Source of the DNA: Candidatus Omnitrophota bacterium
GTDB taxonomy: Bacteria; Omnitrophota; Gorgyraeia; Gygaellales; Profunditerraquicolaceae
Assembly: GCA_041650835.1 (NCBI GenBank)
Contig: JBAZKL010000003.1
Coordinates: forward strand, 99,682-163,681
Length of the DNA: 64,000 nt
Reading direction: 5' to 3'
Shown here: in pieces, positions 19,917 to 44,177 of the stretch
How the letters are laid out: every line of letters begins with the position of its first letter
How positions within the stretch are numbered: position 1 is the first letter of the stretch
The notes under the pieces: model-generated
Database searches by the model: none
The model's input: only the letters and a program-made list of their open reading frames with translations
What the model was told of the DNA's origin: nothing
Position numbers and translations under genes: made by a program

Positions 19917-22310
19917 TTATTTCGCTTTCCATTTTTTCTTATACATAAAATATGCTTTGCGTAACTGCCGCAAAAACGGGCTTAACTTACCCTTACCCTG
20001 TCCGCATATGCCGAGCCATTCCTCATGCATAAAACCATCCGGGAACGGGCCGGTAAACAACCCCTTCGTATCATGCATAAACGGCTCATACGCTTTCCAC
20101 CATTCATCCACCCACTCAAAAACGATTCCGCCGACTGAATTACCGGCTCCGTCGGAGAACGCCATATTATTCTCTATATCCTCCCAGGTGCCGCGATGAT
20201 ATTCCGATTGGAACTCCTCTGCTTCGTCTAAAGACTTGCCTTCGGCAAAAGCCGGGCAGCCGTATTCAGTAATAAATGCCGGCTTATCAGCCTGCTCCTT
20301 AACTTGTTTCCACAAAGAACCAAAGCCGTAATTCCCCCGGTACGCGTTGGTCCCGAACATATCAATGTCCGGGGCATTCTTGCCGAACTTATCCAGGAAA
20401 AGGACATCGCCGCTGCAGATGGCGACAGGATGCTCCGGGTCGATCGCTTTGATCTGCCTTGCCGCTTCATTGGCAAAAGCAAAGAACGCATCCGGTTCTT
20501 TGTCGGCGTTGCAGGCATAACCATACACGTTCTCATTGCCTAAAAGCCAGAACAAAATAAACGGCTCATCCTTATATTCCGCAACCATCTTCAAAACGGA
20601 ATCAAGCATATTCTTTTTCTGCTCTTCATTCGTATAATCGGTCCCGGGATTCCATTTCGCGCCTGAACCGATAGCATACTTGCCGAAAAAGTCACCCATA
20701 ATAACGCGGATACCGTATGTCTTATAAAGATCGCGCAATAATTCTTTGTTCACTTTAAGCGGATGATGATACAAACGTATGGAATTGGCTCCCATATCCT
20801 GCATTAATTTAAAATCGCCCACCGGAGGTTCATCGGGGTCCTGAACGTTATTCTTATTGGCATCCACGAACGCGTCGTAGGGGCCGTCGATCAAAGCGTT
20901 CTTGTTAAAATCTTCGAATTCCCAATCGCCTAAGGTATGCTCGTCGGGAGATTGCCCTATTTTAGTAGGAGAATAGGTGATCGCTTTTACGACAAACGGT
21001 TTATCATCAACGATCAACTGCCAATCGCCGTTCTCATATTGAGCCAGATGGACCTTCCCCTTGCCCAATGTCCGTTTTATATTTATCGAATCCGGCTGGA
21101 CTTTTGGTTTTATTTTATCCAACAGCCCGAGCTTCACGAATCTCCCGGGGTTAGTCATGATCACGTCGTTGGCAAGGTCATGATCAAAACCATTGGTAAT
21201 AGTGATATCGGCATCAATAAGCCGATAGCCCAACTGAGGATTATTACGCAATAAAAAATTGATCTTAGCGATAGCTGCCTGGCCCACATACCACGGCGTA
21301 TGCCAATAGGTCCATCCGTAGCTTCCGGGGAAATGTACCACGATCGAATAATAGCATTTAATCGCATGTTTAATTAAGCCTGATTTTTCCAGGAGTAAAC
21401 CTGTATAAAACAGCTTGACGCCTTGGGGCTCGGGAGCAGTCGCCCACTTCAAGAACGCAGCCTCCAAATCAGGCGAATTGACAAAATCCCAATGGCTGCC
21501 TTCGAGACGGCCTGTTTTTTGTGTTTTCTTATATTCAGGGTCCCACCGGATAGAAGAAGTATTCGGGTACACCCCTTCTCCGACAGCCACGCTTAATCCA
21601 TCCTGGTCTTTGACCGCGTATTGATAATCCTTTGTGCCGACATTTTTGAATTCTCCGTATTTCGAATAATCGACAAAATCTTCTTTCCCGGGATCATATA
21701 ACGTGATTTTCGTAGGAAGCTGGCTTACTTTCTTTACTGCGGCCGGTTTCGCTGCAGCAGACACATCTTTAAGTTGAGCGATAGCTTCCTGGGCGGTTTT
21801 AGCGATGACCCAGAACCACCCCCGCTGGTCCCATGCCTGGGCAAAAGAATACTTATCGGAAATAATCTGAAAAGTCTTTATGGCATCCTCTTTTTTTCCC
21901 TGGTTACGGTAGGATTCCCCTTGTATAAAATAAGCGGTCGCCACATCGTTTAAAACCTGGACAGCTTCGATCTCCTTCTTGCCGCGGGGCAGCTCTTTTA
22001 AAGCCCCCTGCAGCCTGGCAGCTTCATCTTTATAGAGGTCAATGCATTGATTGGTATACTCAAAGGTAAGAACGGCGTCTTTCTGGCCATGGGCTTCCCA
22101 TGCCTTATCGACTAATTCCGACGAAGAAAGCTTTTTTTCAGTAACGGGGATTTGCGCGGCTTCAGGGACAACGGAAGCCGTATCGGCAGGAATAGTTACC
22201 GGCTCTGCCGCCAAAACAAAGCTGCCGGAAGAAAGCACGAAAAGACATGCGGCATACAATAATATTTTGGCCGAAACCCTGTATTTGAGGACCCCTGGCT
22301 TCTCAATCAT
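19917..22310 (-). CDS. Large secreted glycoside hydrolase: N-terminal helical/TPR-like region plus C-terminal clan GH-A TIM barrel
   Basis: 797 aa with a signal peptide. The C-terminal ~400 aa are paralogous to 17250..18533 (ANSIRLYHHP; ILFWLLGNENVYGY; AFITEYG). Confidence 0.6.
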   Translation of the reverse strand: MIEKPGVLKYRVSAKILLYAACLFVLSSGSFVLAAEPVTIPADTASVVPEAAQIPVTEKKLSSSELVDKAWEAHGQKDAVLTFEYTNQCIDLYKDEAARLQGALKELPRGKKEIEAVQVLNDVATAYFIQGESYRNQGKKEDAIKTFQIISDKYSFAQAWDQRGWFWVIAKTAQEAIAQLKDVSAAAKPAAVKKVSQLPTKITLYDPGKEDFVDYSKYGEFKNVGTKDYQYAVKDQDGLSVAVGEGVYPNTSSIRWDPEYKKTQKTGRLEGSHWDFVNSPDLEAAFLKWATAPEPQGVKLFYTGLLLEKSGLIKHAIKCYYSIVVHFPGSYGWTYWHTPWYVGQAAIAKINFLLRNNPQLGYRLIDADITITNGFDHDLANDVIMTNPGRFVKLGLLDKIKPKVQPDSINIKRTLGKGKVHLAQYENGDWQLIVDDKPFVVKAITYSPTKIGQSPDEHTLGDWEFEDFNKNALIDGPYDAFVDANKNNVQDPDEPPVGDFKLMQDMGANSIRLYHHPLKVNKELLRDLYKTYGIRVIMGDFFGKYAIGSGAKWNPGTDYTNEEQKKNMLDSVLKMVAEYKDEPFILFWLLGNENVYGYACNADKEPDAFFAFANEAARQIKAIDPEHPVAICSGDVLFLDKFGKNAPDIDMFGTNAYRGNYGFGSLWKQVKEQADKPAFITEYGCPAFAEGKSLDEAEEFQSEYHRGTWEDIENNMAFSDGAGNSVGGIVFEWVDEWWKAYEPFMHDTKGLFTGPFPDGFMHEEWLGICGQGKGKLSPFLRQLRKAYFMYKKKWKAK

Positions 22311-23155
22311 CCCACTAATGCTCCTTGGGTAACCCCTTTAACGATATATTTTTGCATAAGGATATAAACGATAATTATCGGTAACGCGGTAATGGTCAAA
22401 CCAGCCATTAAAAGAGGATATTTCGTGATAAATTCTCCCTGAAAAGTCTGCAACGCGACCTGCAGCGGCATAAGAGGCTTTGAATCAAAGATGATCAACG
22501 CTAACACGTATTCATTCCAAACATTAAGCGCGTTAAATACGACCACAACCGCAAGCACAGGCTTTGCTAAAGGCAGGGCCACATGCCACCATATTCCCAT
22601 TTTGGAGCAACCGTCTATTCGAGCCGCATCTTCAAGCTCTTTAGGCATCTTATCAAAGAAAGTTTTTAAAAGGAATATGCTCGTTGATAATCCCACGTTG
22701 ATCATGCAAAGGATATACCCGACAGGAGTATTTCTCAAATGGAGCTTATTCAATAAAACGTAGAGCGCGACAAAGCTCCCCGGAATGGGGATCATCATAG
22801 CGACCATAAAGACCGAGAAAAGTATCCCGCGGCCGGGGAAACGAAAACGAGAAAACGCGTACGCGGCCATGGAAGAAATAATGACGATACCGACGACAAC
22901 CGAAACCGTATAGAATATACTATTTAAAAAGTACCTTCCAAATCCGCCTTCCTGCCAGGCCAAATAGTAATTTTCAAAATGGAACTCATGAGGGAATAAA
23001 GACATATCCGTAAATATTGTTTCCTGCGTTTTCAGGCTGGAAGAGATCATCCAAAAGAGAGGGAAAAGGCACGTAATAGAAACGGAGATCAAGAAAAGAT
23101 GGATGAGCGTATTTAAAGCGATTTTCTTCGTCGTATAATAAGCCGTGCTCTTCAT
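22307..23155 (-). CDS. Carbohydrate ABC transporter permease (MalG-like)
   Basis: 282 aa with 6 TM helices and an EAA loop (LEDAARIDGCSKMGIWWHVALPLAKP). Confidence 0.85.
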   Translation of the reverse strand: MKSTAYYTTKKIALNTLIHLFLISVSITCLFPLFWMISSSLKTQETIFTDMSLFPHEFHFENYYLAWQEGGFGRYFLNSIFYTVSVVVGIVIISSMAAYAFSRFRFPGRGILFSVFMVAMMIPIPGSFVALYVLLNKLHLRNTPVGYILCMINVGLSTSIFLLKTFFDKMPKELEDAARIDGCSKMGIWWHVALPLAKPVLAVVVVFNALNVWNEYVLALIIFDSKPLMPLQVALQTFQGEFITKYPLLMAGLTITALPIIIVYILMQKYIVKGVTQGALVG

Positions 23156-23178
23156 TATAGTCTATCCTTATTCTTAGG

Positions 23179-24063
23179 TTATGTCTGACGGAATTTACGG
23201 GAGAACTGATATTGGATAAATGATATCGCCATCAGGACGACACCGAAGGTCAGCCCCTGCGCACAGGCATACCCGAACCGGGAAGAGCCCCGCATCGAAG
23301 CTAAGATCCGTAAAACAGGGACCGAAGTATATCCCCCGACCTCGCCTCCCACTAAACCGATGATCAAGACAAACGCCTGCATAGTTCCCAGGACCGTGAG
23401 TATCGCGACCAAAACCGTGACCGGTATCATTAAAGGAACCGTAATATTCTTAAAGCTGTGCCAGGCATTAGCCCCGTCAACCCGGGCCGCCTCATAGAGC
23501 TCCCGGGGAATAGTCTGTAACCCCGCCAGGAAAATGAGGAACCCCCAGCCGAAGCCTTTCCAGCAATGTACCAACGCGACCGTTGTCAAGGCGGTTTTCG
23601 GGTCATAAAGCCAATGCTGCGTCCATCCCGATAATCCTATTGCGGACAACATACGATTTATCATATTCGCGCCGTCAATATCATTAATAACATACCTCCA
23701 CACCATGCCGACGACGATCTCGGACAATACCGGGGGTATAAAGAAAATAAGCCGGTAATAGTTCTTTAAGCGTATTTCCCTGTCGCACGCCATAGCCAGG
23801 AGAAACGCGAAGATATTCTGCAAGGTAAGGGCTATTATTGTAATATATCCGGCGTTCCACATTGCCTGCCACCACGATTTGTCCTGAGTAACTATTTCAA
23901 TAAAATTACTCATACCGACGAATACCTTGGTCGGCATAATACCGTCCCATTCAAACCTGCTCAACTGGAAGACCCACAAGAAAGGAACAATATAAAATAT
24001 CGTAAAAATAAGCACTGCGGGGAGCACAAAAACGTAATTCTCTAAAGTATCTTTGATCTTCAT
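23179..24063 (-). CDS. Carbohydrate ABC transporter permease (MalF-like)
   Basis: 294 aa with an EAA loop (LYEAARVDGANAWHSFKNITVPLM). Confidence 0.85.
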   Translation of the reverse strand: MKIKDTLENYVFVLPAVLIFTIFYIVPFLWVFQLSRFEWDGIMPTKVFVGMSNFIEIVTQDKSWWQAMWNAGYITIIALTLQNIFAFLLAMACDREIRLKNYYRLIFFIPPVLSEIVVGMVWRYVINDIDGANMINRMLSAIGLSGWTQHWLYDPKTALTTVALVHCWKGFGWGFLIFLAGLQTIPRELYEAARVDGANAWHSFKNITVPLMIPVTVLVAILTVLGTMQAFVLIIGLVGGEVGGYTSVPVLRILASMRGSSRFGYACAQGLTFGVVLMAISFIQYQFSRKFRQT

Positions 24064-24180
24064 AGTAAGTGTCTCGTTTTATGAAAACAGGGAGGAAATT
24101 AAGCTCCACACCCTTTTATCCGGCGCGATCCTCCGTAGCCCTGCCATCATTTTTCTTACCGATGAGCGTAGGAGGACGGT

Positions 24181-25515
24181 CTATTTCCTTTTCTTATTTA
24201 ATTCTCTCTCTTTGATCTTTTGGACCTCATCCGCGACCGCTTCAGGGGTCTTTTTGCCGATAATGATCAGCTGTATCCCTTTATCGAAAGCCTCGATCAC
24301 CGCGGGGAATTCCGACACACCCCAAATATTCGGGTGAGTTGTCTGCTCCATATCATCCGCGAACTGTGAAAGGATATCGGAGATATTCGCTAAACTCTCT
24401 TTGTTTGAAGGGAGGTTTTTTGTCGCTTCAGCTAAATATACTTCCTGGTCTTTTGAGGTAAGCCATTGCAGGAATTTCACCGCTTCTTCTTTTTTCGGCG
24501 AATTCGCGTTGACCATGAACGAAGACCCCGCCCCTCCCCATATCGCCATGGGATATTTATCCGACGCCGCAGGAGGCAGCATCGCCGCATAATTCAACTT
24601 GGGGTTCATCCCCTGATAAACATTGACGCACCAGGAGCCGTTAAAAGCAAAAACCGCCTTTTCAGTCGCGAAAAGCTGCTCGGCAGTCTTATTAACCATA
24701 GTCACGACACCGCCCGCCAGAACTCCCGACTCCTGCATCTGCTTAAAAAGGGTAAAGACCTTGATCCAATCAGGATCGGTATACGGGCTCTCTCCTTTAA
24801 TAGTCGCGAGCACCTTATCTTTACCCATGATATTGAACGCGTAATTATTCGCCAGGCAATCGATCATCCATAACTCGGCCCATCCTGAAACGAGGCCCTG
24901 CATGTTCTTCTCTTTGATCTTCTTGCCGATAGCTAATAATTCTTCGAACGTCGACGGAGCTTTCTCCGGGTCAAAGCCGAGCTCTTTCATAAGATCCTTA
25001 TTATAAACCATTTGAATGGTCATAATATCAATGGGCACGCCATAAATCCCCGGATTGATGCCGTAGCTGTTAGAAGGCGTAAATTCATTGACTGCCAAGG
25101 CTTTACTGAAAAAACTGTTTTCCCATTGCGCGTTATCGGCTTTCATATAGGGTGTCAGATCAAGGATATGCCCGGCTTTTATAAATGACGAAAAATCCCT
25201 TTTTTCACCCAATATGCCGAATATATCGGGCAGATTAGCCCCTTGCGCTGCCGCGCGTACTTTCTGAGAATACGCATCCGAAGGAGCGTACAACTCGAAG
25301 AAAACCTTTGTCCCGGTTTTTTCTTCATACCGCTTTGCCAACTCTTCAAAAGCAGGCTGTCGGTCAGTCATCCAATGCCAAATCGCGATAGTCGGTTTCG
25401 ACTCTATTTTCTTCGAAGCACAACCGGTGACACCCGCAAATGAAGCAAACAGAAACAAGGCTCCTACCCCGAGCGAGAGTTTGTTCATTATTGTTCTTTC
25501 TATACCGACTTTCAT
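24181..25515 (-). CDS. Extracellular solute-binding lipoprotein (family 1, sugar ABC)
   Basis: 444 aa, with a lipoprotein signal (LFASFAGVTGCASKK) and a family-1 SBP-like fold. No ABC ATPase gene is present in the operon. Confidence 0.8.
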   Translation of the reverse strand: MKVGIERTIMNKLSLGVGALFLFASFAGVTGCASKKIESKPTIAIWHWMTDRQPAFEELAKRYEEKTGTKVFFELYAPSDAYSQKVRAAAQGANLPDIFGILGEKRDFSSFIKAGHILDLTPYMKADNAQWENSFFSKALAVNEFTPSNSYGINPGIYGVPIDIMTIQMVYNKDLMKELGFDPEKAPSTFEELLAIGKKIKEKNMQGLVSGWAELWMIDCLANNYAFNIMGKDKVLATIKGESPYTDPDWIKVFTLFKQMQESGVLAGGVVTMVNKTAEQLFATEKAVFAFNGSWCVNVYQGMNPKLNYAAMLPPAASDKYPMAIWGGAGSSFMVNANSPKKEEAVKFLQWLTSKDQEVYLAEATKNLPSNKESLANISDILSQFADDMEQTTHPNIWGVSEFPAVIEAFDKGIQLIIIGKKTPEAVADEVQKIKERELNKKRK

Positions 25516-25913
25516 CCAGCCTCCTCTGTTAAATTAATAGTATATAATACCATTGAATTTGGAATAAATCAAGTTCATAGAGATAAGGTTACAAGAAAAG
25601 GATTTTGACCTTGGGGTATTATTAAAATTTAGCACAAGTTCCTGTAATGGTCAAGGTTTTTATTACTCAAAACAATTACCGCCATATTTCACTTGACCTT
25701 AAAATAAATTATGTTATTATTTATCTATCTGCGCTTTCCGGAAGATCGGTTATTCTCCCGGTTTATATTTTTACGCTCCAAAGTTCTCATAAACACTCAT
25801 CGCAAAAGAATGTTATAAGTATAGCATTTTTTATGGTATTTTTCAAAATTATTCTCATGTTTAAAATGCCTTGGCTTTTCTAGTATCTATTCATAAAAGC
25901 ACGGAGGGGACGC

Positions 25914-26522
25914 ATGAAAGATGAAATGGACATCCTCAGGGAGATGGGAACGATCTCAGCCGGACAGGGCAGTATCGCCCTTTCGGAAATAATCGGGAGA
26001 AAGATAAACCTTAAAGTCCCCGCCCTGACGTTTGTCTCCGGCACCGACATACTTAACCGTTTCAGGGAAAACCAGATCGTGGTCAGTATTTTAGGGAACC
26101 TGCTGACCGGCCTTGAAGGGAAGATCTTATTCCTGCTTGACGAAAAAAGCGCTTATAAATTGATCGACATGTGCTACGGCAGGAAACCCGACGAAAAACA
26201 ATGCGGGGTATTCACCGAAATGGGGATGTCGCTGATGAAAGAAGTGGGAAACGTGGTGATTTCTTCTTTTGTCGGGGCCTTAAGCATTCTTTTGAAATCC
26301 TTGATCATCCCCTCCATCCCGACACTGGTAAACGGCCCGATCAAGCAGATACTGAACATGATACTGTCTTCTGATGACGAATATGTCCTTTTTATAGAAA
26401 CAACCTTTGAAGAGCCTCAACAGAATATCACCGGATGTTTTTACCTGGTATTGACCCCGCAAACAGTCCAGTTTATCCAGACCGCGTGTAAAAAAATGCT
26501 TGAAAACATTAATCAAAGCTAA
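25914..26522 (+). CDS. CheC/CheX-family protein (divergent)
   Basis: 202 aa. The first CheC active-site repeat is degenerate ([14 protein letters not shown], with N replaced by T). The second retains S-x3-E-x2-N (SLMKEVGN). Confidence 0.55.
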
Positions 26523-26524
26523 CC

Positions 26525-27487
26525 ATGAATGAGAGCAAGAACGAAAATACAATATTGATCGTCAGCGCTGACCCTCAGAATATTAGCTTCTTATCGGAAC
26601 TCTTAAGCGGAGAAGGATATAAGGTCAAAGAATGCTCGACCCAGACGGGAGCGAAAGAAATCCTGCTGCAAGAGCAATTTAACCTGGTTATCGCTGATTT
26701 CGAAGCCAACCAGATGAACGGCATTGAGATCTGTAAATTTATCCGCAGTAATTACCGTATTCGCCACATCAGCGTCATTATGCTCATGAATTCAAAAGAC
26801 CCCCTGAACAAGATCAAAGGCATTTACGCGGGAGCGGATGATTATATTGAGACGCCTTTCGACCCGGGAGAATTATTAGTCCGGATAAAAGCGTCACTCG
26901 TGCGGCTGACCAGGGATTTAGATGCCAACCCTTTGACCAAACTTCCCGGCAACGTTTCAGTGATGAAAGAGCTCGAAGAGCGGGTAAAGACTAATGTTCC
27001 GCTGGCGGTCGGATATGTCGACTTAAACAAATTCAAGGAATTTAACGACCGCTACGGATTTGAACGCGGAGACACGATCATCTCGCATACCGCGGTCACT
27101 ATCATGAATGCTTTAGAGAAACACGGCTCGCCGACCGATTTCCTCGGGCATATCGGGGGTGATGATTTTATTTTCATCTCTACCCCGGCTTGTGTCGATA
27201 CAATCTGTAAACAGATCATTTCCAACTTTGACAAAACGGTCACCTCGTATTATGAACAAGAAGACCTTGCCAATGGTTATATTATCGCGCGCAACAGAAA
27301 AGGCGAAATGACCAAGATCCCTCTTCTGAGTATTTCCATCGGGGTTACTACCAATGAACACCTTAAGTTTACCCACATTGCCGCTATTATACAGAACGCT
27401 ACAGAATTAAAGCATTTTGCCAAAACCTACGGCGGAAGCATCTACTTAAAAGACAGGCGACAGAGAACCGACGCCAACCCTTCTTAA
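26525..27487 (+). CDS. Response-regulator receiver fused to a GGDEF domain with a non-canonical GGDDF motif
   Basis: 320 aa. The REC domain (LVIADFEA) carries the conserved Lys position as Thr (DDYIETPF). The GGDEF domain shows [27 protein letters not shown] and [10 protein letters not shown]. Confidence 0.75.
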
Positions 27488-27586: not shown

Positions 27587-27886
27587 TTACAAAGTATTCA
27601 TGATGGTGTTGATCTTTTCAAACATAACACCTACTTCATGCGAGGCATGCTTTGTCGATTCTTTTACCCAAACAACCTTGCCTTCGACAAAATAGGTGCC
27701 GAACTGCGGAGTAACCCTGAACTCTCCCGTCACCTTACTTCCGACAGGAACTGTTTCATTAAGAAAGACCCTCATCCCGCCGCTGCTCAGATCCGCAATA
27801 GGGACTTCCTTTTTTTCATGACCCTTGCCGAATGTTGCCTTATTATTCTCTATATTCCAGCGGCTATATTTTCTTCTCTCGTCCAA
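27587..27886 (-). CDS. PilZ-domain protein (c-di-GMP receptor)
   Basis: 99 aa. It has an RxxxR motif (RRKYSRW) and a DxSxGG motif (DLSSGGMRV). Confidence 0.8.
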   Translation of the reverse strand: MDERRKYSRWNIENNKATFGKGHEKKEVPIADLSSGGMRVFLNETVPVGSKVTGEFRVTPQFGTYFVEGKVVWVKESTKHASHEVGVMFEKINTIMNTL

Positions 27887-27911: not shown

Positions 27912-30272
27912 TTATTTTACTTTGAATTGGCCGACCAATTCCCTTAATTCAGAAGATGTTTTCGCTAATTCAGCCGCCCCCGCGCTCATTTCTTCCATTG
28001 ACGCGGTCATTTCCTCGGTACTGGCAGAGAATTGCTGGGTCGACGCGGCATTCTGCTCTGCGACTTGGGCGACCTGCTTAACCACATCCATGACTTTCTC
28101 CGTGGCACGGATCTGCTGCGGTACCGACTCTGAGATCGTGATCATCAGGTCCTTCGCTTTATTTGCCACGGTAAGGATACTTTCCTGGACTCTACTGGTG
28201 ATCTGGACGATCTTTCTTCCGTCTTCAGCCTGTTCCTTTTCACTGACTACCAGGCCTACAGCCCTGTCGATCTCATTAATGATCTTTTGGACCAATTGCT
28301 GGATCCTGTTGGCCGCGTGAGCAGAACCTTCGGCAAGCTTTCTGACTTCTTCAGCAACGACGGCAAACCCTCTTCCCGCGTCACCCGCGCGCGCCGCTTC
28401 AATTGCAGCGTTCAAAGACAAAAGATTGGTCTGATCGGCAAAAGATGTAATGGTGACAATAATGTCCCCGATCTCTTTAGAGCTATCTTTCAATTCCTGA
28501 ATAGCGGTCGATGATAAATTAGCCGCCTCAACTATCTTGTTGATCTTGTCGATCAACTGGATCGTGGATTCTTTACCCTGTGCCGCGTGTTCCGCCGACT
28601 TAACAGAGCTGTCTTTGGCAACTTCGGCATTGGTAGCGACCAGCTTCAGCCTTGAGGCCAATTCATCGAATATCTTCTCGACCTCGCGGACCTTATCCAG
28701 CTGGGTAGAGGCGCCCTTAGAAATATCCTGAATACCATTGCTTATCTGCACCATTGAGGCATTAGTTTCTTCGGCATTCGCGGAAAATTGCTGCGCGGCA
28801 TTTGAAACCTGTTCAGTATTCACCAAGATCTGCGAGATCATATTACGCATTTGTTCGACGAATACATTGAACCAGTTCGCGAGGTCCCCGATTTCATCGG
28901 AAGATTTGATGGAGATCCGATTGGTCAGGTCGCCTTTTCCTTTAGCTAATGTCTTAAGCATGGCAAGCATAAGCGTGCTCGGCTTGGTAATAGTACGGAC
29001 AATGACCAAAGAAACAATGACGAAAACAACCGCGATAATGATCATCGACCCGAATAAATAAATCAAAGAACTCTTGCCGACTTCAACGATACCCTTTTTA
29101 ACCTGCTCAACCGAAGAAATCTTGATTTCCTCAATACGCTTGGCGGCAGATTCCTGAGATTCATTTAATGCATTCCTTGAATCTTCAATAACCGCAGCTG
29201 CGCCCTTAACGGTCTCCGCGGCCTTGGTATCGATCTCTTTACGCATCTCTTCGCCAAATGCCGAAAGCTCTTTCGGTACTTCGGTATTTAAACGGTCGAT
29301 CTTACCTGAAAGAGTTTTCTCAACCGTCGATATCTTTTCACGCGCTTCAGACTGAATATTAATGACTTTAGCGATCGAGTCTTCAAATAAAGCCTGCAAT
29401 ACCTGAGAAGTCATGATCTTTTCTTTATCGGCATCTGTCTTGATCTTCAAGTCCATAAGGCGCATCTGCTCTTTAATGACTCCGATAACGCGCTTGATCT
29501 CTCTTTGCGTAGTGGAATATGCCTGGCCATAGCCTTTTTTGATATTATTCTTGAGACTCTCCTGCAAAGGCATGATCTGTTCCATAGCTTTATCAGAGCT
29601 AAAACCTGGAGTAGCGGACGCAGCTTCCCCTAAGATCGTCATCATCTGGATCGTATTGTCATCAACCTGGTCGTTTAAACCTCCCGTGATCTCCTCTAAT
29701 TGATGTCCTAAAATGACCAACACTTCTTCTATTTTACCGAATCCGTCTAAACTTGCCTGGATCAAACCCTCAACGCGAAAATATGCCAATTGAGTTAAAA
29801 CATCCTGGGATGTTGTCGCTTCTTCAATAGTCTGGCCTACAGCTTCAGAGGCGACCGCCAAGCTGGAATTAAAGCCATCCGCCATGGTAACTTCAAGCTC
29901 TTTCAGGGAAAGCGCGACATCCGAACCCGTTTTTGTGATCATTTCCTGGGTATACCCCTGGAACTTACCCTGGCTCTTCTGGGCAATTTCTTTTATCTCA
30001 CCCAAGGCGACTAAACCGCTGGTTTTTTTGACGCTCTCTTCAGCGATATTCTGGAAATTCTTAAAAAGATTTTTAACATCATTAAAAACATTATCGAAAG
30101 AATCAGTGACATTCTTACTGATATCCCGCTCGAGCCTCTTATTAGAAAGAATACCGGAGATGATCGCGCCGCTGCTGGATAGTAAAAAGATTAAAATAAC
30201 AAGACCTAATATCTTATGAGAAAGCCTTAACTTAAAACCTTTTTTCTCTTCCATGATAATGTTTTCGCTCAT
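27912..30272 (-). CDS. Methyl-accepting chemotaxis protein with a large helical periplasmic domain
   Basis: 786 aa. It has an N-terminal TM, a ~400 aa helical ectodomain, a second TM, a HAMP domain ([19 protein letters not shown]) and the conserved signalling hairpin ([38 protein letters not shown]). Confidence 0.9.
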
Positions 30273-35160: not shown

Positions 35161-36834
35161 TTATACTGTTTTGTCCTGTAATTTAAACTTTTGTACCGTT
35201 TCCTTTAATTCTACGGCCAAACGGGCAACTTCCTGGCTCGAAGCGGCAACTTCCTGCATGGAAGCAGTTTGCTCCTGGGTATTCGCCGAAACATGCTCTA
35301 TCGCGGTTGCCGACTCTTTAGCTATCTGCGTAACTTCGCTTATTACCTTTACCATGCCCTCTATCTCAGCAACACTATCCTGGCCGGTAGAAGCAATATG
35401 GTTAACAAATACGGTAGCCTCCTGGGCAACCTTATTAATCTCCCCCAAAACCTCAGTTATTTTAGCTACCTGGGCCCGGCCGCCCTGGACTTCTTTTGAA
35501 CTGGCTTCAATGGAATTAACCGCGCGATTAGTTTCTTCCTGGATCAACGTGATCAGCCCCCCGATCTTACGCACAGCTTCAGCTGCGCCCTCAGCGAGCT
35601 TTCTAACTTCTTCGGCAACTACCGCGAAGCCTCTCCCCGCGTCTCCAGCCCTGGCGGCCTCAATTGCCGCGTTAAGCGCCAAAAGATTGGTCTGATCCGC
35701 GATAGAAGTGATAGTCTCGGTGATCTCTCCTATCTGCTGCGAAGTCTTGCCAAGCCCCTGAACAACAGAAGTTGTCTCTAAGACCGTATTTGTCAAATGG
35801 CTTATTCTTTCTACAGTTTCCAAAGCTGCGATACGCGCGCTTTCCGCGCAAGCCGTTGTCTGGCCAACCGCCCTATGCGCCATTTGAGCATCTTTAACCA
35901 CATCCTTAAGATTATCAGCTGCCCGGCCCATAGCTTCAAATACCCCATTGATCTGCTTTGCCTGAGTATTGGCGCCTTTACTTACCTGCGCCACGGAATA
36001 AGCGACTTCTTGCGTTGAAGAACTCATTTCCTGAATAGTATGCGTCGTCTCTTGTAAAGAAAACGCCACCTTATCGGCAATTCCGCTGATCTGAGCGATC
36101 ATGTCGCGTAACCCTTGAGACATCTTAGAGAATGCTTTCGACAACTCCAGCATCTCATCATCGCCCTTCATCTCGATCGCCCCCAAAGAAAGATCACCGG
36201 AAGAGATTTTCTTAGCAATAAGCATAAATGCCGACAAGGGCCGTAAAACATGCTTTTCCAGGAAAAGGCTGTACAGTACACCCCCGCCGACCAAGACTAA
36301 GACGCATAAAAAAACCGCCAGCATGATAATGCCGTTAACATCCGCGATGATATACTTATCCGTAATTCCCACCCTCAAGATACCAACGGCCTGAGTGCCT
36401 GACATAACAGGAATAACCGCCTCGAAAACACTCCCATAGCCGGGCCGCTTAAGGATAAACTGGCTTTTTGCCTTAAGACAGCGCTTCTCATCCGCTGTTT
36501 TGTTCAGGTATTTTCCCTCCAGGTCCCGGCGCGTGGAAACCAACACCAACCCTTCTTTCTCAAGAAGGATAATATACTCAATATCGAAATTCCTGCCCCG
36601 GGCATCTTCGAATAAACGGGAAATCCGGTCTATCGCGCCGGATTCTAAAAGGTCCCTGCATGAAAGCGCAAGGCTTGACGCCATGTTCTCAGCCGCTAAC
36701 TGCTGCATCGAAAAAAGCTGGGCGCGCATTCTATAGCCGACAACCGACAGCACTATGGCAGTTACCAGGGAAACAACCCCGAGAAAATAAACCATCATTT
36801 TCAATTTCATCCGGGAGCTATTCGCGAGATCCAT
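35161..36834 (-). CDS. Methyl-accepting chemotaxis protein
   Basis: 557 aa with two TMs flanking a ~150 aa periplasmic domain, a HAMP domain, and the signalling hairpin [38 protein letters not shown]. Confidence 0.9.
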
Positions 36835-36979
36835 ATACCCTCTGAAGCTGTTGAGAATTTAACGAACGGTTACTGATCTTGTATTGAATAAACAGCAAAA
36901 ACTGCTTTCGCTTGATAAAAAAGGCTGGAACAAATCAAAAACCCTGAAGACATCCTTCGATAAGGCAGGCAGGCGAAGC

Positions 36980-37504
36980 TTAACTTTCTTTTTCTTTACC
37001 TTCTTTCAGCACAGACGCGGAGGAGCCCTTCACCCGCTCAACATGCTGCACTTCTTCGGGGCTCAAGACGCTCTTAAGGTCTAAAAGGATCAAAAGCCTG
37101 TCTTTTAATTTCCCGACCCCCCAGATATAATGTTCAGGGATCTCCGTCATAACCAGCGACGGGACGTCTTCAACATATTCTGAAGATAACCGCAACACTT
37201 CTGAAACCGAATCCACGATCATGCCCACGGTGTTATCGCCGAATTCCACGATAACGATACGGGTGCGCTCCCCGCGTTCTTTAGCGGTAATACCCAATCT
37301 TTTCGCCAAATCAATAACAGCGACTACCTGGCCGCGCAAATTAACGACACCTTCGATAAAAACAGGAGCCTTGGGTAAATAGGTGATTTGCAGCAACCGG
37401 ACAATTTCCCTTACCTGGCTTATATCAACACCAAACTCTTCTTCCCCGATCGTGAAAACAACCAACTGGTATTCTTTTAATTTACTTTCAGCCATGAGGA
37501 TCAC
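36980..37504 (-). CDS. cheW: Chemotaxis coupling protein CheW
   Basis: 174 aa with a CheW-like SH3-type domain (EYQLVVFTIGEEEFGVDISQVREIV...). Confidence 0.9.
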   Translation of the reverse strand: MILMAESKLKEYQLVVFTIGEEEFGVDISQVREIVRLLQITYLPKAPVFIEGVVNLRGQVVAVIDLAKRLGITAKERGERTRIVIVEFGDNTVGMIVDSVSEVLRLSSEYVEDVPSLVMTEIPEHYIWGVGKLKDRLLILLDLKSVLSPEEVQHVERVKGSSASVLKEGKEKES

Positions 37505-37531
37505 CCCCTGTTATGAACTGCCCGGAAATAA

Positions 37532-38143
37532 CTATTCTTTTAATCCTAATAAATCAAATATTTTCAACAATGAGTCCGTTGACGGGAACAACAAAAACAA
37601 GCCTTCGAGATTCAACCCCTTAACTTTCATATCGGTCTTGATCACAATCGCCTCTTCCGAATACTGCGCGATCTGTATAAAAATAAAATCCAGGATAGCA
37701 CCCACCATATCCATCGCTAACGAAGGGATAGAAGTAAGGATGTTTTGGTGGACCATGTCGGCCAAAGCGGATAAATACGACCCGCCTAAGATATTCGCTG
37801 ATTCTTTTAAAGAGGACTGGAACAAGGAATCGTTAAAATCGATCTGGTCTTTAGGCAAACCCAGAAGGCTGCTGGATAAAAGCCGCGCGTCATTCGGAGA
37901 AAACAATAAAAATATCCTCCCGTAAATATCCCCCTTGATCTCCATATCTAAAACAAAAAATAACCGGTCCATTTCCCCTAATAATTTATAAATCTGCTCC
38001 AAGGGAACCATGGTAACTTCAGGGACGTTGATCTCGACTTTCTCAGCGACCAGATCGGCCAAGGCAGTAGCGGCATTGGCAGCGCCGATAGTGCCGATCT
38101 CTCTTATCAGATCCATCTGAGCTAAAGAAAACTTTTTATCCAT
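37532..38143 (-). CDS. cheC: CheC-family phosphatase
   Basis: 203 aa. Repeat 1 is DLIREIGTIGAANAATALADL, with N replaced by T. Repeat 2 is SLKESANILGGSYLSALADM, with E..N retained. Confidence 0.75.
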   Translation of the reverse strand: MDKKFSLAQMDLIREIGTIGAANAATALADLVAEKVEINVPEVTMVPLEQIYKLLGEMDRLFFVLDMEIKGDIYGRIFLLFSPNDARLLSSSLLGLPKDQIDFNDSLFQSSLKESANILGGSYLSALADMVHQNILTSIPSLAMDMVGAILDFIFIQIAQYSEEAIVIKTDMKVKGLNLEGLFLLFPSTDSLLKIFDLLGLKE

Positions 38144-38164
38144 GACCGATTCCTTTTTTATTAA

Positions 38165-39208
38165 CTATATTTTTTCTAATATCGCTTTCGCTATATCAAA
38201 AACAGGCAGCACCGCGTCAGACAAGCCGGCATCATAAATAACTTTCGGCATACCCCAGACAACCGATGTCTTCTCATCCTGGATAATTACCGTACCGCCT
38301 TTTTCTTTTATTTTCCTTACCCCTTCCAAAGCGTCCTTACCCATCCCCGTCAAGACTACCACGACAACATTCTTACAGTCATAATTCTCAACGACCGACA
38401 ACAGTGTCACATCCGCTGCAGGGCGGACAAAATTCACGAGAGGCCCCTGGTTCAATTTTATCCTTAAAACCCCTTTTTCATTTTCAATCCCCATATGGGA
38501 GCCGGCAGGCGCGACAAAAGCTTTTCCAGCGACAAGAATATCGCCCTCCTCAGCCTCTTTAGCCTTGATCTTTGACTGCCAGGAGATCCTTTCAGCAAAG
38601 CTTAAGGTAAATCCCAGCGGCATATGCTGGATTATCAAAAAAGACGCGGGGACATTCGCGGGGATATCCCGCATAACATCTAACACCGCTTTCGGGCCGC
38701 CCGTTGAAGCCGCTATCAAAACCAGCTTCTTAAAGGCGATCGGTTTTACCTCCGCGCCAAAAGTATCTGCTTTAAATTGTTCTTTTGAAGAGACCTTCGT
38801 CACCTCAACCTTAGCCGCTAATTTTATTTTCGCGATAATCTCATCTTTAAGCTTATTGATATCTAAAGAAATCTCGCCTGATGGCTTGGCAACAAAATCA
38901 ACCGCCCCTAACTCCAGCGCCCGCAATGTCGCGGTCGCGCCCGCGCGGGTATACGCGGAGATCATGACAACGCGCGATGGCTGTTTTTTCATTACTTCTT
39001 CAAGGACGCTTAACCCATCCAGCAAAGGCAAGTTTATATCCAAAGTGATCACGTCGGGCTTGAACTCGTATATTTTTTCCAAAGCCTCTTTACCGTCTTT
39101 CGCTTTACCGATTATTTCCAAAGCCGGATCGCTCTCAATAATATCGGAAATGATCTGGCGCATCAAGAATGAATCGTCAACGATTAAAACACGTATTTTA
39201 TTTTCCAT
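38165..39208 (-). CDS. cheB: Chemotaxis methylesterase CheB (REC plus methylesterase)
   Basis: 347 aa. It has an N-terminal receiver domain (VLIVDDS...DVITLDINLP) and a C-terminal catalytic domain (ASTGGPKAV, IIQHMPLGFT). Confidence 0.9.
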   Translation of the reverse strand: MENKIRVLIVDDSFLMRQIISDIIESDPALEIIGKAKDGKEALEKIYEFKPDVITLDINLPLLDGLSVLEEVMKKQPSRVVMISAYTRAGATATLRALELGAVDFVAKPSGEISLDINKLKDEIIAKIKLAAKVEVTKVSSKEQFKADTFGAEVKPIAFKKLVLIAASTGGPKAVLDVMRDIPANVPASFLIIQHMPLGFTLSFAERISWQSKIKAKEAEEGDILVAGKAFVAPAGSHMGIENEKGVLRIKLNQGPLVNFVRPAADVTLLSVVENYDCKNVVVVVLTGMGKDALEGVRKIKEKGGTVIIQDEKTSVVWGMPKVIYDAGLSDAVLPVFDIAKAILEKI

Positions 39209-39696
39209 TATACTTCTTTCTCTCCCCAGGAAACCGTTTTAACCAGGACCTTACCGTCATCCAAATTAAGCTCGATCGTTCTCCCGAAACTACCGCCCGT
39301 TTCCTGGACATCGACCTTCATATCTAAAGCCTTAAGCGTGATCATGGCAACTTCAAGGTTCTTTTGGCCGACATTAAGGATACTATCGGAAGCAATAAAA
39401 CCGAACATATGCGCTCCGCCGAAAAGCTTGGTAACAATTGAGCTGCGCGACACGCCCCGCTTCTCCATTTCTTCGACCATCTTCGTAAGAGCGGAGTTGA
39501 CAAACCGGCTGGGATTTGATTTAATCTTGGCTTTCTCGATATCAGGGAGCATCGGATGCGCCATCACGCCGATCTTCTTTGACGGGTCATACATAGTGAT
39601 ACCTAAACAGGAGCCAAGCCCCCGGGTGATCAATCGTGCAGGGGCTTCGGATATTTCCATTTGAGCCATATTTACTTCAATGGTTTTTGCTTCCAT
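39208..39696 (-). CDS. cheD: Chemoreceptor glutamine deamidase CheD
   Basis: 162 aa with GLGSCLGITMYD and GVMAHPMLP motifs. Confidence 0.85.
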   Translation of the reverse strand: MEAKTIEVNMAQMEISEAPARLITRGLGSCLGITMYDPSKKIGVMAHPMLPDIEKAKIKSNPSRFVNSALTKMVEEMEKRGVSRSSIVTKLFGGAHMFGFIASDSILNVGQKNLEVAMITLKALDMKVDVQETGGSFGRTIELNLDDGKVLVKTVSWGEKEV

Positions 39697-39709
39697 GATA
39701 ATCGTACCC

Positions 39710-40081
39710 CTATCCTCCTATAACTCTTTTTAATGCCTCCACGACGCGTGAAGGTTGAAAAGGTTTTGTTACAAAATCCTTGGCACCTGCCTGAATAGCT
39801 TCAACAACCAAGGAATGCTGCCCCATAGCCGAAACCATGATGATCTTCGCCTGCGAATCCACTTTCATGATTTCCTTGACCGCGCCAATACCGTCGATCT
39901 CTTCAACCTTCGGCATGACAATATCCATCGTGACTAAGTCGGGTTTAAGCTGCTGATATTTATCGATCGCATCTTTGCCGTTCTCAGCCTCACCGCAAAT
40001 CTCTATACCTTCCTTCTTGAGAATATCGGAAAGCATCCGACGCATGAACAACGCATCATCAACAATTAATACCCGTGCCAT
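39710..40081 (-). CDS. cheY: Chemotaxis response regulator CheY
   Basis: 123 aa single-domain receiver (LIVDDALFMRRML, DLVTMDIVMP, SAMGQ, KDFVTKPF). Confidence 0.9.
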   Translation of the reverse strand: MARVLIVDDALFMRRMLSDILKKEGIEICGEAENGKDAIDKYQQLKPDLVTMDIVMPKVEEIDGIGAVKEIMKVDSQAKIIMVSAMGQHSLVVEAIQAGAKDFVTKPFQPSRVVEALKRVIGG

Positions 40082-40136
40082 CTGCTACCTCCTTTGTATT
40101 TTTGAATCAGGCCTTCTTTAAAGTCCCGGAATACAT

Positions 40137-40982
40137 TTATCCGATTTTCTGGTAAATCTTATTCTTATTGCCCGGTTCTGCCGCCGTGAATAAATCTTTT
40201 TGCCAAACATTTTCCACTTTGCCGACGGTCAAATACCCTTTCGCGTTAAGCGAGCTATAGAACTTCCGGGTAAATTCCTCCTGCTGTTGGCGGGTGAGGT
40301 AAATCATAATGTTCCGGCAGCAAACCAGGTCCATGAACTGCAAATACGGTTCGGTTATCAAATTGTGCTGCTGGAACTTCACCATCCCCTTTATTTCGTC
40401 TTTCAATTTGTAAACGTTATTATAAACTGGTATGAAATATTTATCAAGCGTTTTCTTATCTAACTTTTTTAACTCGATAGCCTTATATTCGGCTTTCGCC
40501 GCTTTATCCAATGCTTCCCGGTCCATATCGGTAGCGATGATCCTGAGGGAATAATCCCCCCGGCTGGCCAATTCTTCTTTCAGCATGATCGCCAGGGAAT
40601 ACGGCTCTTCTCCGGTCGCGCACGCCGCGGACCAAACCCGCAGCACCCGGTTATTCATTTCGGCCTTACGCTTGAGGATGTCCGGGATCACAACGCTGCG
40701 CATTGCCTGGAAAACTTCTATATCGCGGAAGAACTCGGTAACATTAACGCCAAGGGTATTCAATAAAAACCCGAATTCTTCGGGGGTCTTTCGGATATAC
40801 CCCTCATAATCCACATACCGCTCCAGCTTCAGATTCGACATACGCACGCGCAAGCGCCGCAAAACAAAACTCTTACGATACGAGCTTAAGTCGATACCCT
40901 TTTGTTGCCGGATATAAGCAAGGAGCGACAAAAATCCCGGATCTTTTAAATATTCCGCTTCCTGGGGATCCTGCATATTCAT
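40137..40982 (-). CDS. cheR: Chemotaxis methyltransferase CheR
   Basis: 281 aa with a CheR N-terminal helical domain and a SAM-binding domain (RVWSAACATGEEPYSLAIML). Confidence 0.9.
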   Translation of the reverse strand: MNMQDPQEAEYLKDPGFLSLLAYIRQQKGIDLSSYRKSFVLRRLRVRMSNLKLERYVDYEGYIRKTPEEFGFLLNTLGVNVTEFFRDIEVFQAMRSVVIPDILKRKAEMNNRVLRVWSAACATGEEPYSLAIMLKEELASRGDYSLRIIATDMDREALDKAAKAEYKAIELKKLDKKTLDKYFIPVYNNVYKLKDEIKGMVKFQQHNLITEPYLQFMDLVCCRNIMIYLTRQQQEEFTRKFYSSLNAKGYLTVGKVENVWQKDLFTAAEPGNKNKIYQKIG

Positions 40983-40989
40983 TCTATAA

Positions 40990-41253
40990 TTAATGACGCG
41001 GGTTCTTGCTGATATGCAAGATCGCTTTTGTTAATTCTTTAACGACGTCTGCGCGGAACTGGGTGCCTTGTTCATTGAGCTTGGTAAACACCCGCCCCTT
41101 ATCGGTAATGACATAATTCGGCGGTAGCCTGTTCAAAGCCCAAACCATAATATCAAACTTGCATTTCTGGCATTTACATATATCCTCGATCTCGGAGAAT
41201 AATTCATTCAACTCATCTTCAACAATATCTTCCATGTAATTATGTATTTGCAT
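40990..41253 (-). CDS. ComFB-family protein (late competence ComFB-like; candidate cyclic-dinucleotide receptor)
   Basis: 87 aa. It shows the ComFB hallmark cysteine cluster and downstream motif ICKCQKCKFDIMVWALNRLPPNYV. It is embedded inside the che operon with an 8 bp gap to cheR. Confidence 0.75.
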   Translation of the reverse strand: MQIHNYMEDIVEDELNELFSEIEDICKCQKCKFDIMVWALNRLPPNYVITDKGRVFTKLNEQGTQFRADVVKELTKAILHISKNPRH

Positions 41254-41412
41254 GAATGCCTCCTTGTAGCTTCATTATTCGGCTGCTGCAACACCGATAA
41301 CCTTACACCCCCCGCGCTGATCGCACCTTGACTTATCGGATAGCCAAGTGCGCGCTTTCTGCGCAGGAATTGCGCGGGGTATGCTGCTTTCTGCAGCACC
41401 GATAACCGAATA

Positions 41413-43560: not shown

Positions 43561-44177
43561 GTTTGATTTATACTAAGGATCTTATGCACGCTTTCCTGCG
43601 CCAATAAGAAAAGGACGAAGACATTCAACTCGACATCTTCGATAAAAAGACGGTTCTCGATCGGCAGGATATACCCGGCATCGCCCTTATGCAGCCCGGC
43701 GATCAAGTGACGGACCAAACGAGCCATCGTATCCATGTGGATCTGATTTACCGACGGGACTAATTTATACAGCTTCAAGAACTCAGTCACCGCGTTCAAG
43801 TAGGAACAACAGAGGATATTAGAACTTTCGGAGAGGGCGGAAGCATCCGCAAGATTAAAAAGCTGGCTGGTCCCGGCTTTCCGGCGCGCGAGAATATCGA
43901 TCATTGAAAGCGCGCTCTTGAGCGAGAACAAAACCAGCATATCACCGGTTAAAGACCCCAAAATATTCACGCTGACCGCCATGCCTATTTCATGGGGGTC
44001 GGATAAGAATTCGGCGCTTAAAACCTCAGGGAATGAAAGGATCTTAACGCTCGGGACATTAATAAGCACTTTCTTGTTAAAAAGCTGGCCTAAAGCCGTG
44101 GCGGCATTACCCGCGCCGATATTGCCGATTTCTTTTAATACGTCTAATTGCTGAGATGTTAAATTCAATCCGCTCAT
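43557..44177 (-). CDS. cheC: CheC-family phosphatase
   Basis: 206 aa with a canonical first repeat (LDVLKEIGNIGAGNAATALGQL) and a second repeat (SALSESSNILCCSYLNAV). Confidence 0.85.
   Translation of the reverse strand: MSGLNLTSQQLDVLKEIGNIGAGNAATALGQLFNKKVLINVPSVKILSFPEVLSAEFLSDPHEIGMAVSVNILGSLTGDMLVLFSLKSALSMIDILARRKAGTSQLFNLADASALSESSNILCCSYLNAVTEFLKLYKLVPSVNQIHMDTMARLVRHLIAGLHKGDAGYILPIENRLFIEDVELNVFVLFLLAQESVHKILSINQT

Follow-up and report, generated by a model that had tools for sequence, protein, structure and literature searches.

A conserved Omnitrophota gene pair encodes a CheC-type protein and a receiver–GGDDF protein that is most likely a guanine-specific diguanylate cyclase

Introduction

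Can a GGDEF-fold domain whose active-site motif reads GGDDF, attached to a receiver domain that has lost most of its signature residues, still work as a diguanylate cyclase, and what is the role of the CheC-type gene that directly precedes it? These questions are raised by a locus of a Candidatus Omnitrophota bacterium (GenBank assembly GCA_041650835.1, contig JBAZKL010000003.1, positions 99,682–163,681), a stretch of 64,000 nucleotides (nt) that was analyzed as a whole and is referred to here as the window. In this window, a CheC-type gene encoding 202 amino acids (25914–26522, plus strand) is followed by a gene encoding a receiver–GGDDF (REC-GGDDF) protein of 320 amino acids (26525–27487, plus strand). 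Domains with the GGDDF motif are usually scored as degenerate and inactive in genome censuses of cyclic dimeric guanosine monophosphate (c-di-GMP) signaling, and an earlier note on this DNA had considered the protein to be an impaired cyclase or a c-di-GMP-binding effector rather than a synthase. The results presented here argue for a different explanation, which we favor with moderate confidence: the two genes would belong to a conserved Omnitrophota module in which an active, guanine-specific cyclase with a pseudo-receiver and a CheC-family partner joins chemotaxis to c-di-GMP.

Gene organization and recurrence of the pair

Both genes are genuine open reading frames (ORFs), as the earlier note had held, both products have profile matches, and all the protein strings quoted there were found in the translation. 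The CheC-type gene ends with TAA at 26520–26522 and is separated from the ATG of the REC-GGDDF gene at 26525 by two nucleotides (cc); the tight coupling that had been claimed was therefore upheld, with a spacer of 2 nt rather than 3 bp. A Shine–Dalgarno-like GGAGGGG was read from the sequence at 25903–25909 (plus strand), 4 nt before the ATG of the CheC-type gene. No comparable site precedes the REC-GGDDF gene, which fits translational coupling of the second gene to the first. A scan for promoters and terminators was indecisive, with 11 promoter-like sites against 5.1 expected.

The same arrangement was found in other genomes. We examined 51 family loci from other genomes (designated by L and a number), of which 36 were orthologous and had assessable upstream sequence (L022 was scored by hand). 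A CheC-like gene was located immediately upstream of the REC-GGDDF gene in 30 of these 36 loci, with spacings of approximately −17 to +21 nt. The nearest relatives (92% and 90% identity), like nearly all of the named matches, were from Candidatus Omnitrophota metagenome-assembled genomes. Residue conservation was scored in a family table of 121 members with 56–92% identity.

Residue mapping of the GGDDF domain

The GGDEF-fold domain, assigned to an H-[IV]-GGDDF subfamily from profile, alignment, and conservation, spans amino acids 135–312 (26927–27460, plus strand). The match to the Pfam GGDEF profile (PF00990; E = 2e-13, 51.1 bits against a cutoff of 23.8) covered only profile positions 5–120 of 161; the full beta-alpha topology of the GGDEF fold was present in the structure predicted with AlphaFold2. 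This model had a predicted local distance difference test score (pLDDT) of 84, and its best Foldseek matches were DgcR, WspR, and PleD, with DosC and GcbC also among them. Weak Pfam matches to the Cas10/Cmr2 palm2 domain (E = 0.07 here and 8e-6 for P0117) and to GTP cyclohydrolase III were also observed. The GGDEF profile, the fold, and the guanine ligands gave a far better fit, and a Cas10-like or other non-GGDEF identity was therefore rejected.

The GGDDF motif occupies amino acids 211–215 (nt 27155–27169). HMMER alignment placed it on the GGEEF of PleD, in agreement with the earlier assignment to the active site (A-site), and alignment with DosC and DgcZ gave the same result. The complete A-site reads H209-I-G-G-D213-D214-F215 (nt 27149–27169) and departs from the textbook form [G/A/S]G[D/E]E[F/Y] (as stated in PMC8835794) in that its fourth residue is Asp. 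Across the family, D166, K171, N174, D183, H209, G211, G212, D213, D214, K296, K300, and R312 were invariant in 121 of 121 members, and F215 was conserved in 118. Of these residues, D166, N174, and D183 (PleD D327, N335, and D344) align with their counterparts in PleD, DosC, and DgcZ, and K300 is equivalent to PleD K442, which, like PleD R446, is a phosphate-binding residue of the last helix.

The earlier description of the domain as otherwise well conserved thus holds for the metal and guanine ligands, but four other features differ. The position two residues before the GG (−2) is His in all 121 members, whereas PleD, DosC, and DgcZ have Arg. The equivalent of PleD R446 is Gly in the window protein (Gly in 50% and Lys in 49% of the family), and the His of the GH..GD motif is Phe. 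The inhibitory-type RxxD motif (I-site) five residues before the GG, which the note had proposed to look for, reads SPTD; its Arg position was occupied by N, S, T, E, G, A, K, or H in 121 of 121 sequences, whereas its Asp (D205) was kept in 97%. At the C-terminus, a KDRR tail (amino acids 309–312) is conserved. The joint, invariant replacement of Arg by His at −2 and of Glu by Asp at the fourth position looks like a remodelled, rather than a broken, active site, and the invariant K296 and the KDRR tail may compensate for the changes at −2 and at the R446 position. Taken together, the conserved residues suggest that the REC-GGDDF protein is most likely a working, guanine-specific diguanylate cyclase. 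To judge from its substrate-binding residues, it does not belong to the Hypr enzymes, in which the position of PleD D344 and GacA S348 is Ser; here it is Asp.

A widespread H-[IV]-GGDDF subfamily

With only the GGDDF domain as the query, phmmer found 670 matches at E ≤ 1e-30 (50%-identity clusters) among 1.84 billion cluster representatives. Among the best 150 of these 670, the motif was GGDDF in 143, the fourth residue was Asp in 146, the −2 position was His in approximately 140, and the I-site Arg was absent in 148. The subfamily consensus, NPLT.LPGN ... DLDNFKAFND.YGF..GD ... ELK.YAK...GS.Y..DRR, was common to several architectures, and the KDRR/DRR tail was also found in members fused to EAL or HAMP domains. 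Partner domains were scored with Pfam in the 90 longer or atypical sequences of the 150, most of the other 60 being approximately 310 amino acids long, the length of a REC-GGDDF protein. REC was detected in 46 of these 90, EAL in 23, HAMP in 17, CBS in nine, and MshEN in five, and GAF and HD-GYP domains were also present. This is the usual company of c-di-GMP enzymes, which is consistent with a working cyclase. The subfamily includes a protein from a cultured Firmicute, Desulfitibacter alkalitolerans.

One clade with the architecture HAMP-GGDDF (P0325 and P0424–P0542, from Desulfobacterota and Nitrospirota) contained the motif H[IV]GGDD[FY] in 119 of 120 members. The position of the base-specifying Asp was Ser in 44 and Asn in 58 of the 120 listed, and we know of no characterized example of the Asn variant. 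Ser or Asn occurred at this position only in the HAMP-GGDDF clade. These distributions place the REC-GGDDF protein, by sequence, in a large and previously unnamed branch of the GGDEF domains. The strongest general point to emerge from the comparison is that GGDDF with His at −2 appears to be an alternative form of the catalytic hairpin that has been selected and is widespread.

Activity in vivo has been reported for a single GGDDF domain, that of GSU1937, a Hypr GGDEF protein of Geobacter sulfurreducens, which produced both cyclic GMP–AMP (cGAMP) and c-di-GMP, whereas a GADDF mutant did not (PMC8835794). The proposal that the window protein is an impaired cyclase is therefore not supported: GGDDF and the catalytic set are invariant in the family, the motif is native to the 670-cluster subfamily, and GSU1937 is active.

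Decayed paralogs and non-catalytic alternatives

The window contains a second REC-GGDEF gene (54466–55422, plus strand; 318 amino acids), the product of which is 41% identical to the REC-GGDDF protein. Its A-site reads AKTGSNDF, its guanine-binding Asp is replaced by Asn (RGN, RGNA), and its phospho-acceptor is Glu. Members of this decayed group are also present in other genomes (L042–L049), and the window paralog grouped with L044, L047, and L049. As a candidate for a non-catalytic effector, this paralog is preferable to the gene at 26525–27487. The existence of such paralogs indicates that relaxed copies do decay, whereas the GGDDF gene has not. In the 0.56 Mb of Omnitrophota DNA examined, the ORFs with GGDEF domains comprised 44 of the GGDDF type and nine decayed paralogs, and no canonical GG[DE]EF was found in this sample, which is centered on these loci and hence biased.

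Several points weigh against catalysis and would suit a GGDDF domain that binds GTP with no or only feeble turnover and acts as a nucleotide-sensing regulatory subunit, as in GGDEF-EAL phosphodiesterases, a reading that lies close to the impaired cyclase of the earlier note. The residue proposed as the cross-dimer catalytic base is the fourth of the motif, where Asp is shorter than Glu, and PA3258, a GGDDF-EAL protein, gave no cyclase phenotype (PMC8835794), so that activity is plausible but not guaranteed. Besides this Glu-to-Asp change, there are differences at two positions whose residues are common in active cyclases (Arg to His at −2, and R446 to Gly or Lys, with Gly in the window protein), and GTP-binding, non-catalytic GGDEF domains would keep much the same residues. 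Moreover, EAL, which accompanies 23 of the 90 longer subfamily members, is a setting in which GGDEF domains often turn allosteric. On the other hand, the REC-GGDDF protein has no other output domain to regulate, and its entire catalytic set, with both metal carboxylates and K171, shows no variation. Paralogs that are truly relaxed quickly decay, the gene adjoins genes for c-di-GMP receptors, one GGDDF domain has been shown to be active (GSU1937; PMC8835794), and the biased 0.56 Mb sample contained no canonical GG[DE]EF. We consider a GTP sensor of this kind unlikely.

A GGDEF domain may also serve as a c-di-GMP receptor, as in the effectors PopA, PelD, and SgmT. The non-canonical A-site, the retention of D205, and the Arg-rich, conserved KDRR tail would be in keeping with such a role. 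The I-site Arg was, however, never present, either in the family or in 148 of the 150 subfamily representatives, which argues against an effector like PopA or PelD. GGDEF domains of the effector type normally lose their A-site and substrate residues, as the window paralog has done, but here these residues are invariant, and the occurrence of the KDRR/DRR tail in EAL- and HAMP-fused proteins marks it as a feature of the domain rather than an effector add-on. The effector reading of the earlier note, against which the absence of the I-site Arg in 121 of 121 sequences speaks, is thus very improbable.

The receiver domain

The receiver domain (amino acids 9–127; 26549–26905, plus strand) is atypical. 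It matched the Pfam Response_reg profile (PF00072) with E = 9e-17 (61.7 bits against a cutoff of 30.2), and its (beta-alpha)5 fold was similar to those of the PhoP, VicR, and RR468 receivers, with template modeling (TM) scores of 0.88–0.95 in Foldseek. When it was aligned with PleD and with the CheY and CheB receivers of the window, the acidic pair was S14-A15, the equivalent of Thr87 was M88, and the equivalent of the conserved Lys was T110 (nt 26852–26854). The replacement of Lys by Thr, which had been noticed before, was evident both in the PleD alignment and in the alignment with the two CheY proteins and CheB of the window. The sole signature residue left is the phospho-acceptor D58, which aligns with PleD D53 and the CheY Asp; four of the five signature residues are gone, and the receiver is therefore more degenerate than had been described. 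The three other receivers in the window (CheY, CheY, and CheB) are canonical, with DD, D, S, and K.

Among the 121 family sequences, the first acidic position was Val or Ile in 86%, and the second was Glu in 36% and otherwise Asn, Ser, Ala, or His. The equivalent of Thr87 was Met, Ile, or Leu in all 121. The receiver Lys was retained in 64%, and the Thr of the window protein was found in eight of 121, which form a small subclade. The phospho-acceptor was Asp in 92% and Glu in 7%. Canonical DD-D-T/S-K receivers were present in other REC-GGDDF lineages, including L038 and L040, indicating that the Omnitrophota clade lost these receiver residues secondarily. The receiver was nonetheless nearly as conserved as the cyclase domain (mean column identity 0.70 vs 0.74), most strongly across alpha4-beta5-alpha5 and the linker. 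The receiver has lost the acidic pair that binds Mg and the switch residue Thr87, as well as, in this genome, the Lys, and canonical phosphorylation is therefore probably no longer its mode of action. It may instead serve as a phosphorylation-independent domain for dimerization and partner binding.

The CheC-type partner

The CheC-type protein matched the Pfam CheC profile at 26.2 bits (cutoff 22). It also matched the NCBIfam profile CheC_Thtogales over residues 3–185 (E = 9e-27), at 94.2 bits and thus well below the equivalog cutoff of 250. Its AlphaFold2 model (pLDDT 79) was most similar in Foldseek to the CheC of Thermotoga maritima (1xkr/2f9z; TM 0.77–0.81), with lower values for CheX (0.5–0.68). 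The active-site consensus of CheC, CheX, and FliY, which contains the EXXN motif, is D/S-x3-E-x2-N-x22-P, a form reportedly due to Park et al. 2004 and Muff & Ordal 2007. Site 2 of the CheC-type protein is canonical and complete (S106-x3-E110-x2-N113-x22-P136). In site 1 (D6-x3-E10-x2-T13-x22-P36), the canonical Asn is replaced by Thr.

Among 121 CheC-like sequences, site 2 retained S106 in 100%, E110 in 99%, N113 in 81%, and P136 in 99%. In site 1, E10 was conserved in 100%, position 13 was Ser or Thr in 92%, and P36 was retained. The earlier note had called the first repeat degenerate; the Asn-to-Thr change was confirmed, but it belongs to a Ser/Thr variant that is kept family-wide. The same Thr was found in site 1 of a CheC paralog in the window's chemotaxis operon (37532–38143), whereas the paralogs at 43557 and 46213 keep Asn. 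It is also the 37532–38143 paralog, and not the CheC-like gene at 25914, that is adjoined by cheD. The CheC-like protein is thus, by profile and fold, a member of the CheC-fold family and not the CheD-partnered equivalog.

Fusions of CheC to a receiver or to a GGDEF domain were sought, and none occurred among the 120 CheC-like matches listed, all of which were stand-alone proteins of approximately 202 amino acids. Nor, in about 30 gene pairs, did the residue at the receiver Lys position show any pattern of covariation with the site residues of the CheC-like protein: the Lys-bearing L005, L008, and L014 have N113S, and receivers with Thr, Ile, or Val pair with the canonical N113. In the CheC/CheX/FliY family, the inserted Asn positions the water molecule and the Glu is joined to the receiver Lys by a salt bridge (PMC3035606). 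The receiver in the window, being without that Lys and without the Mg ligands, is a poor candidate for a CheC-family substrate.

These features bear on a conventional two-component arrangement, in which D58 is phosphorylated by CheA or an orphan kinase and activates the cyclase as in WspR, PleD, and DgcR, the CheC-like protein being the dedicated phosphatase that resets it. Such an arrangement would account for the persistence of D58 as Asp or, less often, as Glu, which is a frequent phospho-mimic. It is also in line with the conservation of E110 and N113, the tight operon coupling in 30 of 36 loci, the canonical receivers of the ancestral REC-GGDDF lineages, and the pairing of CheC paralogs with CheY genes elsewhere in the window, such as 46213 with 46870. 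Opposed to it are the loss from the window receiver of both acidic Mg ligands (S14, A15), of Thr87 (M88), and of Lys109 (T110), together with the family-wide hydrophobic residue at the Thr87 position and the Val or Ile at the first acidic position. Furthermore, CheC-family catalysis needs the Glu–Lys salt bridge (PMC3035606), and this Lys is missing from the window protein and from 36% of the family. We therefore regard phosphorylation-driven control as a minor possibility.

Synteny and genomic neighborhood

In the six orthologous loci that lack an upstream CheC-like gene, a ComFB-CheR fusion lies immediately upstream of the REC-GGDDF gene, and a PilZ gene follows 11–190 nt downstream on the same strand. 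Coordinates of these fusions include L009:4757-5869, L012:4810-5910, L050:1552-2661, and L010:3993-5624. A PilZ gene was located within 3 kb of the REC-GGDDF gene in 16 loci, and 16 of the 17 PilZ neighbors, including that of the window, kept both of the c-di-GMP-binding motifs, RxxxR and [DN]xSxxG. In the window, a single-domain PilZ protein of 99 amino acids (27587–27886, minus strand; Pfam PilZ, E = 1e-12; RRKYSR and DLSSGG) is encoded convergently with the cyclase gene. Upstream of it in the same minus-strand unit is the gene for a methyl-accepting chemotaxis protein (MCP) with HAMP and MCPsignal domains (27912–30272); the same PilZ–MCP arrangement was seen in L001, L002, and L006. Genes for chemotaxis proteins and c-di-GMP readers are thus consistent neighbors of the cyclase gene. 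In the literature, we found no description of the CheC-like/REC-GGDDF/PilZ or the ComFB-CheR/REC-GGDDF/PilZ arrangement.

Approximately 10 kb from the cyclase gene lies a chemotaxis cluster (35161–47256, minus strand) encoding an MCP, CheW, CheC, CheB, CheD, CheY, CheR, ComFB, an FtsA/PilM-like protein, CheC, CheA, CheC, and CheY. Its CheA (44190–46184) has no receiver domain. This cluster is most likely the pathway with which the gene pair communicates. The stand-alone ComFB gene (40990–41253, minus strand; Pfam ComFB, E = 6e-26) is located immediately upstream of cheR, and its product is homologous to the ComFB half of the fusions found upstream of the REC-GGDDF gene in the six loci mentioned above. 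ComFB is described as a recently established receptor family for c-di-GMP and c-di-AMP, and ComFB-CheR fusions are noted for Omnitrophota, in the relevant passages of PMC12448109. The window ComFB is therefore a second candidate reader of the cyclase product, besides PilZ.

Four CheC-family paralogs are encoded within 21 kb (25914, 37532–38143, 43557–44177, and 46213–46821), accompanied by two CheY proteins, CheA, CheB, CheD, CheR, CheW, and two MCPs, which makes this an unusually CheC-rich region. This bears on the possibility that the two genes are merely co-expressed and that the CheC-like protein is a further phosphatase of phosphorylated CheY (CheY-P) without any physical or regulatory link to the cyclase. 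The abundance of CheC paralogs, the presence of two CheY proteins, the canonical site 2, and the six orthologous loci without a CheC-like gene are all compatible with this possibility. The close juxtaposition of the two genes nevertheless persists across lineages that are only about 50% identical, the adjacent gene encodes a receiver, and no other gene is as constantly linked to it. To our knowledge, the only known partners of CheC-family proteins are receiver domains and CheD. Mere co-expression therefore seems fairly unlikely to us.

A type IV pilus-like cluster (57524–63933, minus strand), which includes genes for N-methyl pilin-like proteins, PilO, a PilM/PilN fusion, and PilC/T2SSF, adjoins the decayed paralog and a tetratricopeptide repeat (TPR) protein gene (55429–57441). 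Pilin-like genes also flank the REC-GGDDF gene in L009, L010, L012, and L050. The 64-kb window showed no flagellar genes, so the chemotaxis system may steer pili.

Within the chemotaxis cluster, between the ComFB–cheR pair and a cheC paralog, a 715-amino-acid protein (41413–43560, minus strand) matched FtsA/PilM-like actin-fold ATPases and a ThiS/TGS-like beta-grasp domain. On the other side of the gene pair, upstream of and divergent from the CheC-like gene, the region 19917–25515 (minus strand) encodes a sugar ATP-binding cassette (ABC) transporter, with a solute-binding protein and two permeases, and a 797-amino-acid protein with TPRs and a TIM barrel like that of glycoside hydrolase family 2 (GH2). 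These genes are unrelated to signaling and mark the boundary of the module. Farther away, a complete operon for an Rnf-type ion-translocating ferredoxin:NAD oxidoreductase (RnfC, G, D, E, A, and B-like) was found at 4130–8986 (plus strand). The ORF called for a major facilitator superfamily (MFS) transporter (2637–4088, plus strand) begins with GTG at 2637 and overlaps the gene for tRNA-Thr(CGT) at 2727–2799 (plus strand); the true start of the transporter is probably downstream of the tRNA.

Proposed mechanism and significance

In the explanation that we favor, two GTP molecules would be condensed across a dimer of the REC-GGDDF protein; D166, D213, and D214 would coordinate the metals, N174 and D183 would recognize the guanine, and K171 and K300 would bind the phosphates. 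There would be no product inhibition via an RxxD I-site. The most likely partner of the receiver is the CheC-like protein, with its one complete phosphatase site, which could act in either of two ways. It may gate the cyclase by binding to the pseudo-receiver, its real substrate being CheY-P, and this is the option that we prefer; or it may dephosphorylate those family members that are still phosphorylatable, in which the Glu, Asp, and Lys are kept. The adjacent PilZ protein and the ComFB encoded beside CheR would act as readers of the product, giving feedback on the chemosensory pathway.

Beyond the questions about catalysis raised above, this scheme faces further difficulties. Phosphorylation may be possible for the family, considering that D58 is Asp in 92% of its members and that the second acidic position is Glu in 36%. 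The likeness to GSU1937 is one of description: no Geobacter entry was present among the best 120 matches to a Ser-type HAMP-GGDDF seed, GSU1937 was not among the matches listed, and its membership in the subfamily is putative. The CheC-like protein might contact the CheY proteins rather than this receiver, and the roles assigned to PilZ and ComFB are suggested by synteny.

A more speculative variant, which we think doubtful, treats the receiver as a mimic or decoy of CheY-P. The CheC-like protein would bind it via the surface that recognizes CheY-P and would hold the cyclase off or on, and CheY-P would compete for this binding, so that c-di-GMP would track kinase activity without phosphotransfer. 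The product would act on adaptation via ComFB/CheR and PilZ, the H-x-GGDDF hairpin being functional. If this were true, it would represent a new wiring of a chemosensory pathway to a second messenger.

The preferred explanation, that of an active cyclase gated by a CheC-family partner, would have consequences for the annotation of c-di-GMP signaling. GGDDF was the only intact A-site seen in the biased Omnitrophota sample. If it is active, the numbers of cyclases have been underestimated for Omnitrophota, Desulfobacterota, Nitrospirota, and some Clostridia, and the definition of the motif needs to be widened. The pairing of a cyclase with a CheC-family protein or a ComFB-CheR fusion, together with PilZ, constitutes a testable chemotaxis/c-di-GMP circuit in an uncultured phylum.

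Comparison with known systems

The closest matches in sequence and structure are PleD, WspR, and DgcR, which share with the REC-GGDDF protein the domain order, the fold, and the metal and guanine ligands. They differ in that their motif is GG[DE]EF with Arg at −2, they have an RxxD I-site, and their receivers are canonical and phosphorylatable, whereas the window protein has H-I-GGDDF, no I-site Arg, and a receiver without four of the five signature residues. WspR is phosphorylated by a CheA-like kinase. The window system departs from a Wsp-type output, which consists of a canonical REC-GGDEF protein encoded in a che-like operon with a hybrid CheA.

The CheC-type protein resembles the CheC proteins of T. 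maritima and Bacillus subtilis in its fold, its length, and its two-repeat layout. In contrast to these proteins, its family has Ser or Thr in site 1 (92%) and is coupled to REC-GGDDF and not to cheD.

Like the window protein, GSU1937 has an A-site that reads GGDDF, is not fused to EAL or HD-GYP, and has many homologs. The two proteins differ in their architecture (transmembrane-HAMP-GGDDF in GSU1937 and REC-GGDDF in the window), in the residue at the PleD D344 position (Ser in GSU1937 and Asp, D183, in the window protein), and in the cGAMP made by GSU1937. The HAMP-GGDDF clade matches the description of GSU1937, the comparison having been made by description.

CC3396/PdeA, PA3258, and PopA, which are GTP sensors or c-di-GMP receptors, also have non-canonical A-sites, and PA3258 and DdpB of Bordetella likewise read GGDDF. 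However, CC3396/PdeA, PA3258, and PopA are fused to EAL or keep RxxD, whereas the window protein has neither of these features and its catalytic set is invariant.

The nearest parallel for the proposed circuit is the PlzC–CheX system of Vibrio cholerae, in which a PilZ protein regulates a CheC-family CheY-P phosphatase and thereby joins c-di-GMP to chemotaxis (PMC12799141). In the window, the genes for a PilZ protein, a CheC-type protein, and a cyclase lie side by side, a likeness at the level of gene neighborhood. The ComFB-CheR architecture noted for Omnitrophota is that of the fusion found upstream of the REC-GGDDF gene in six loci; the passages concerned tie no particular cyclase to it (PMC12448109), and its synteny with REC-GGDDF and PilZ was observed in the present analysis.

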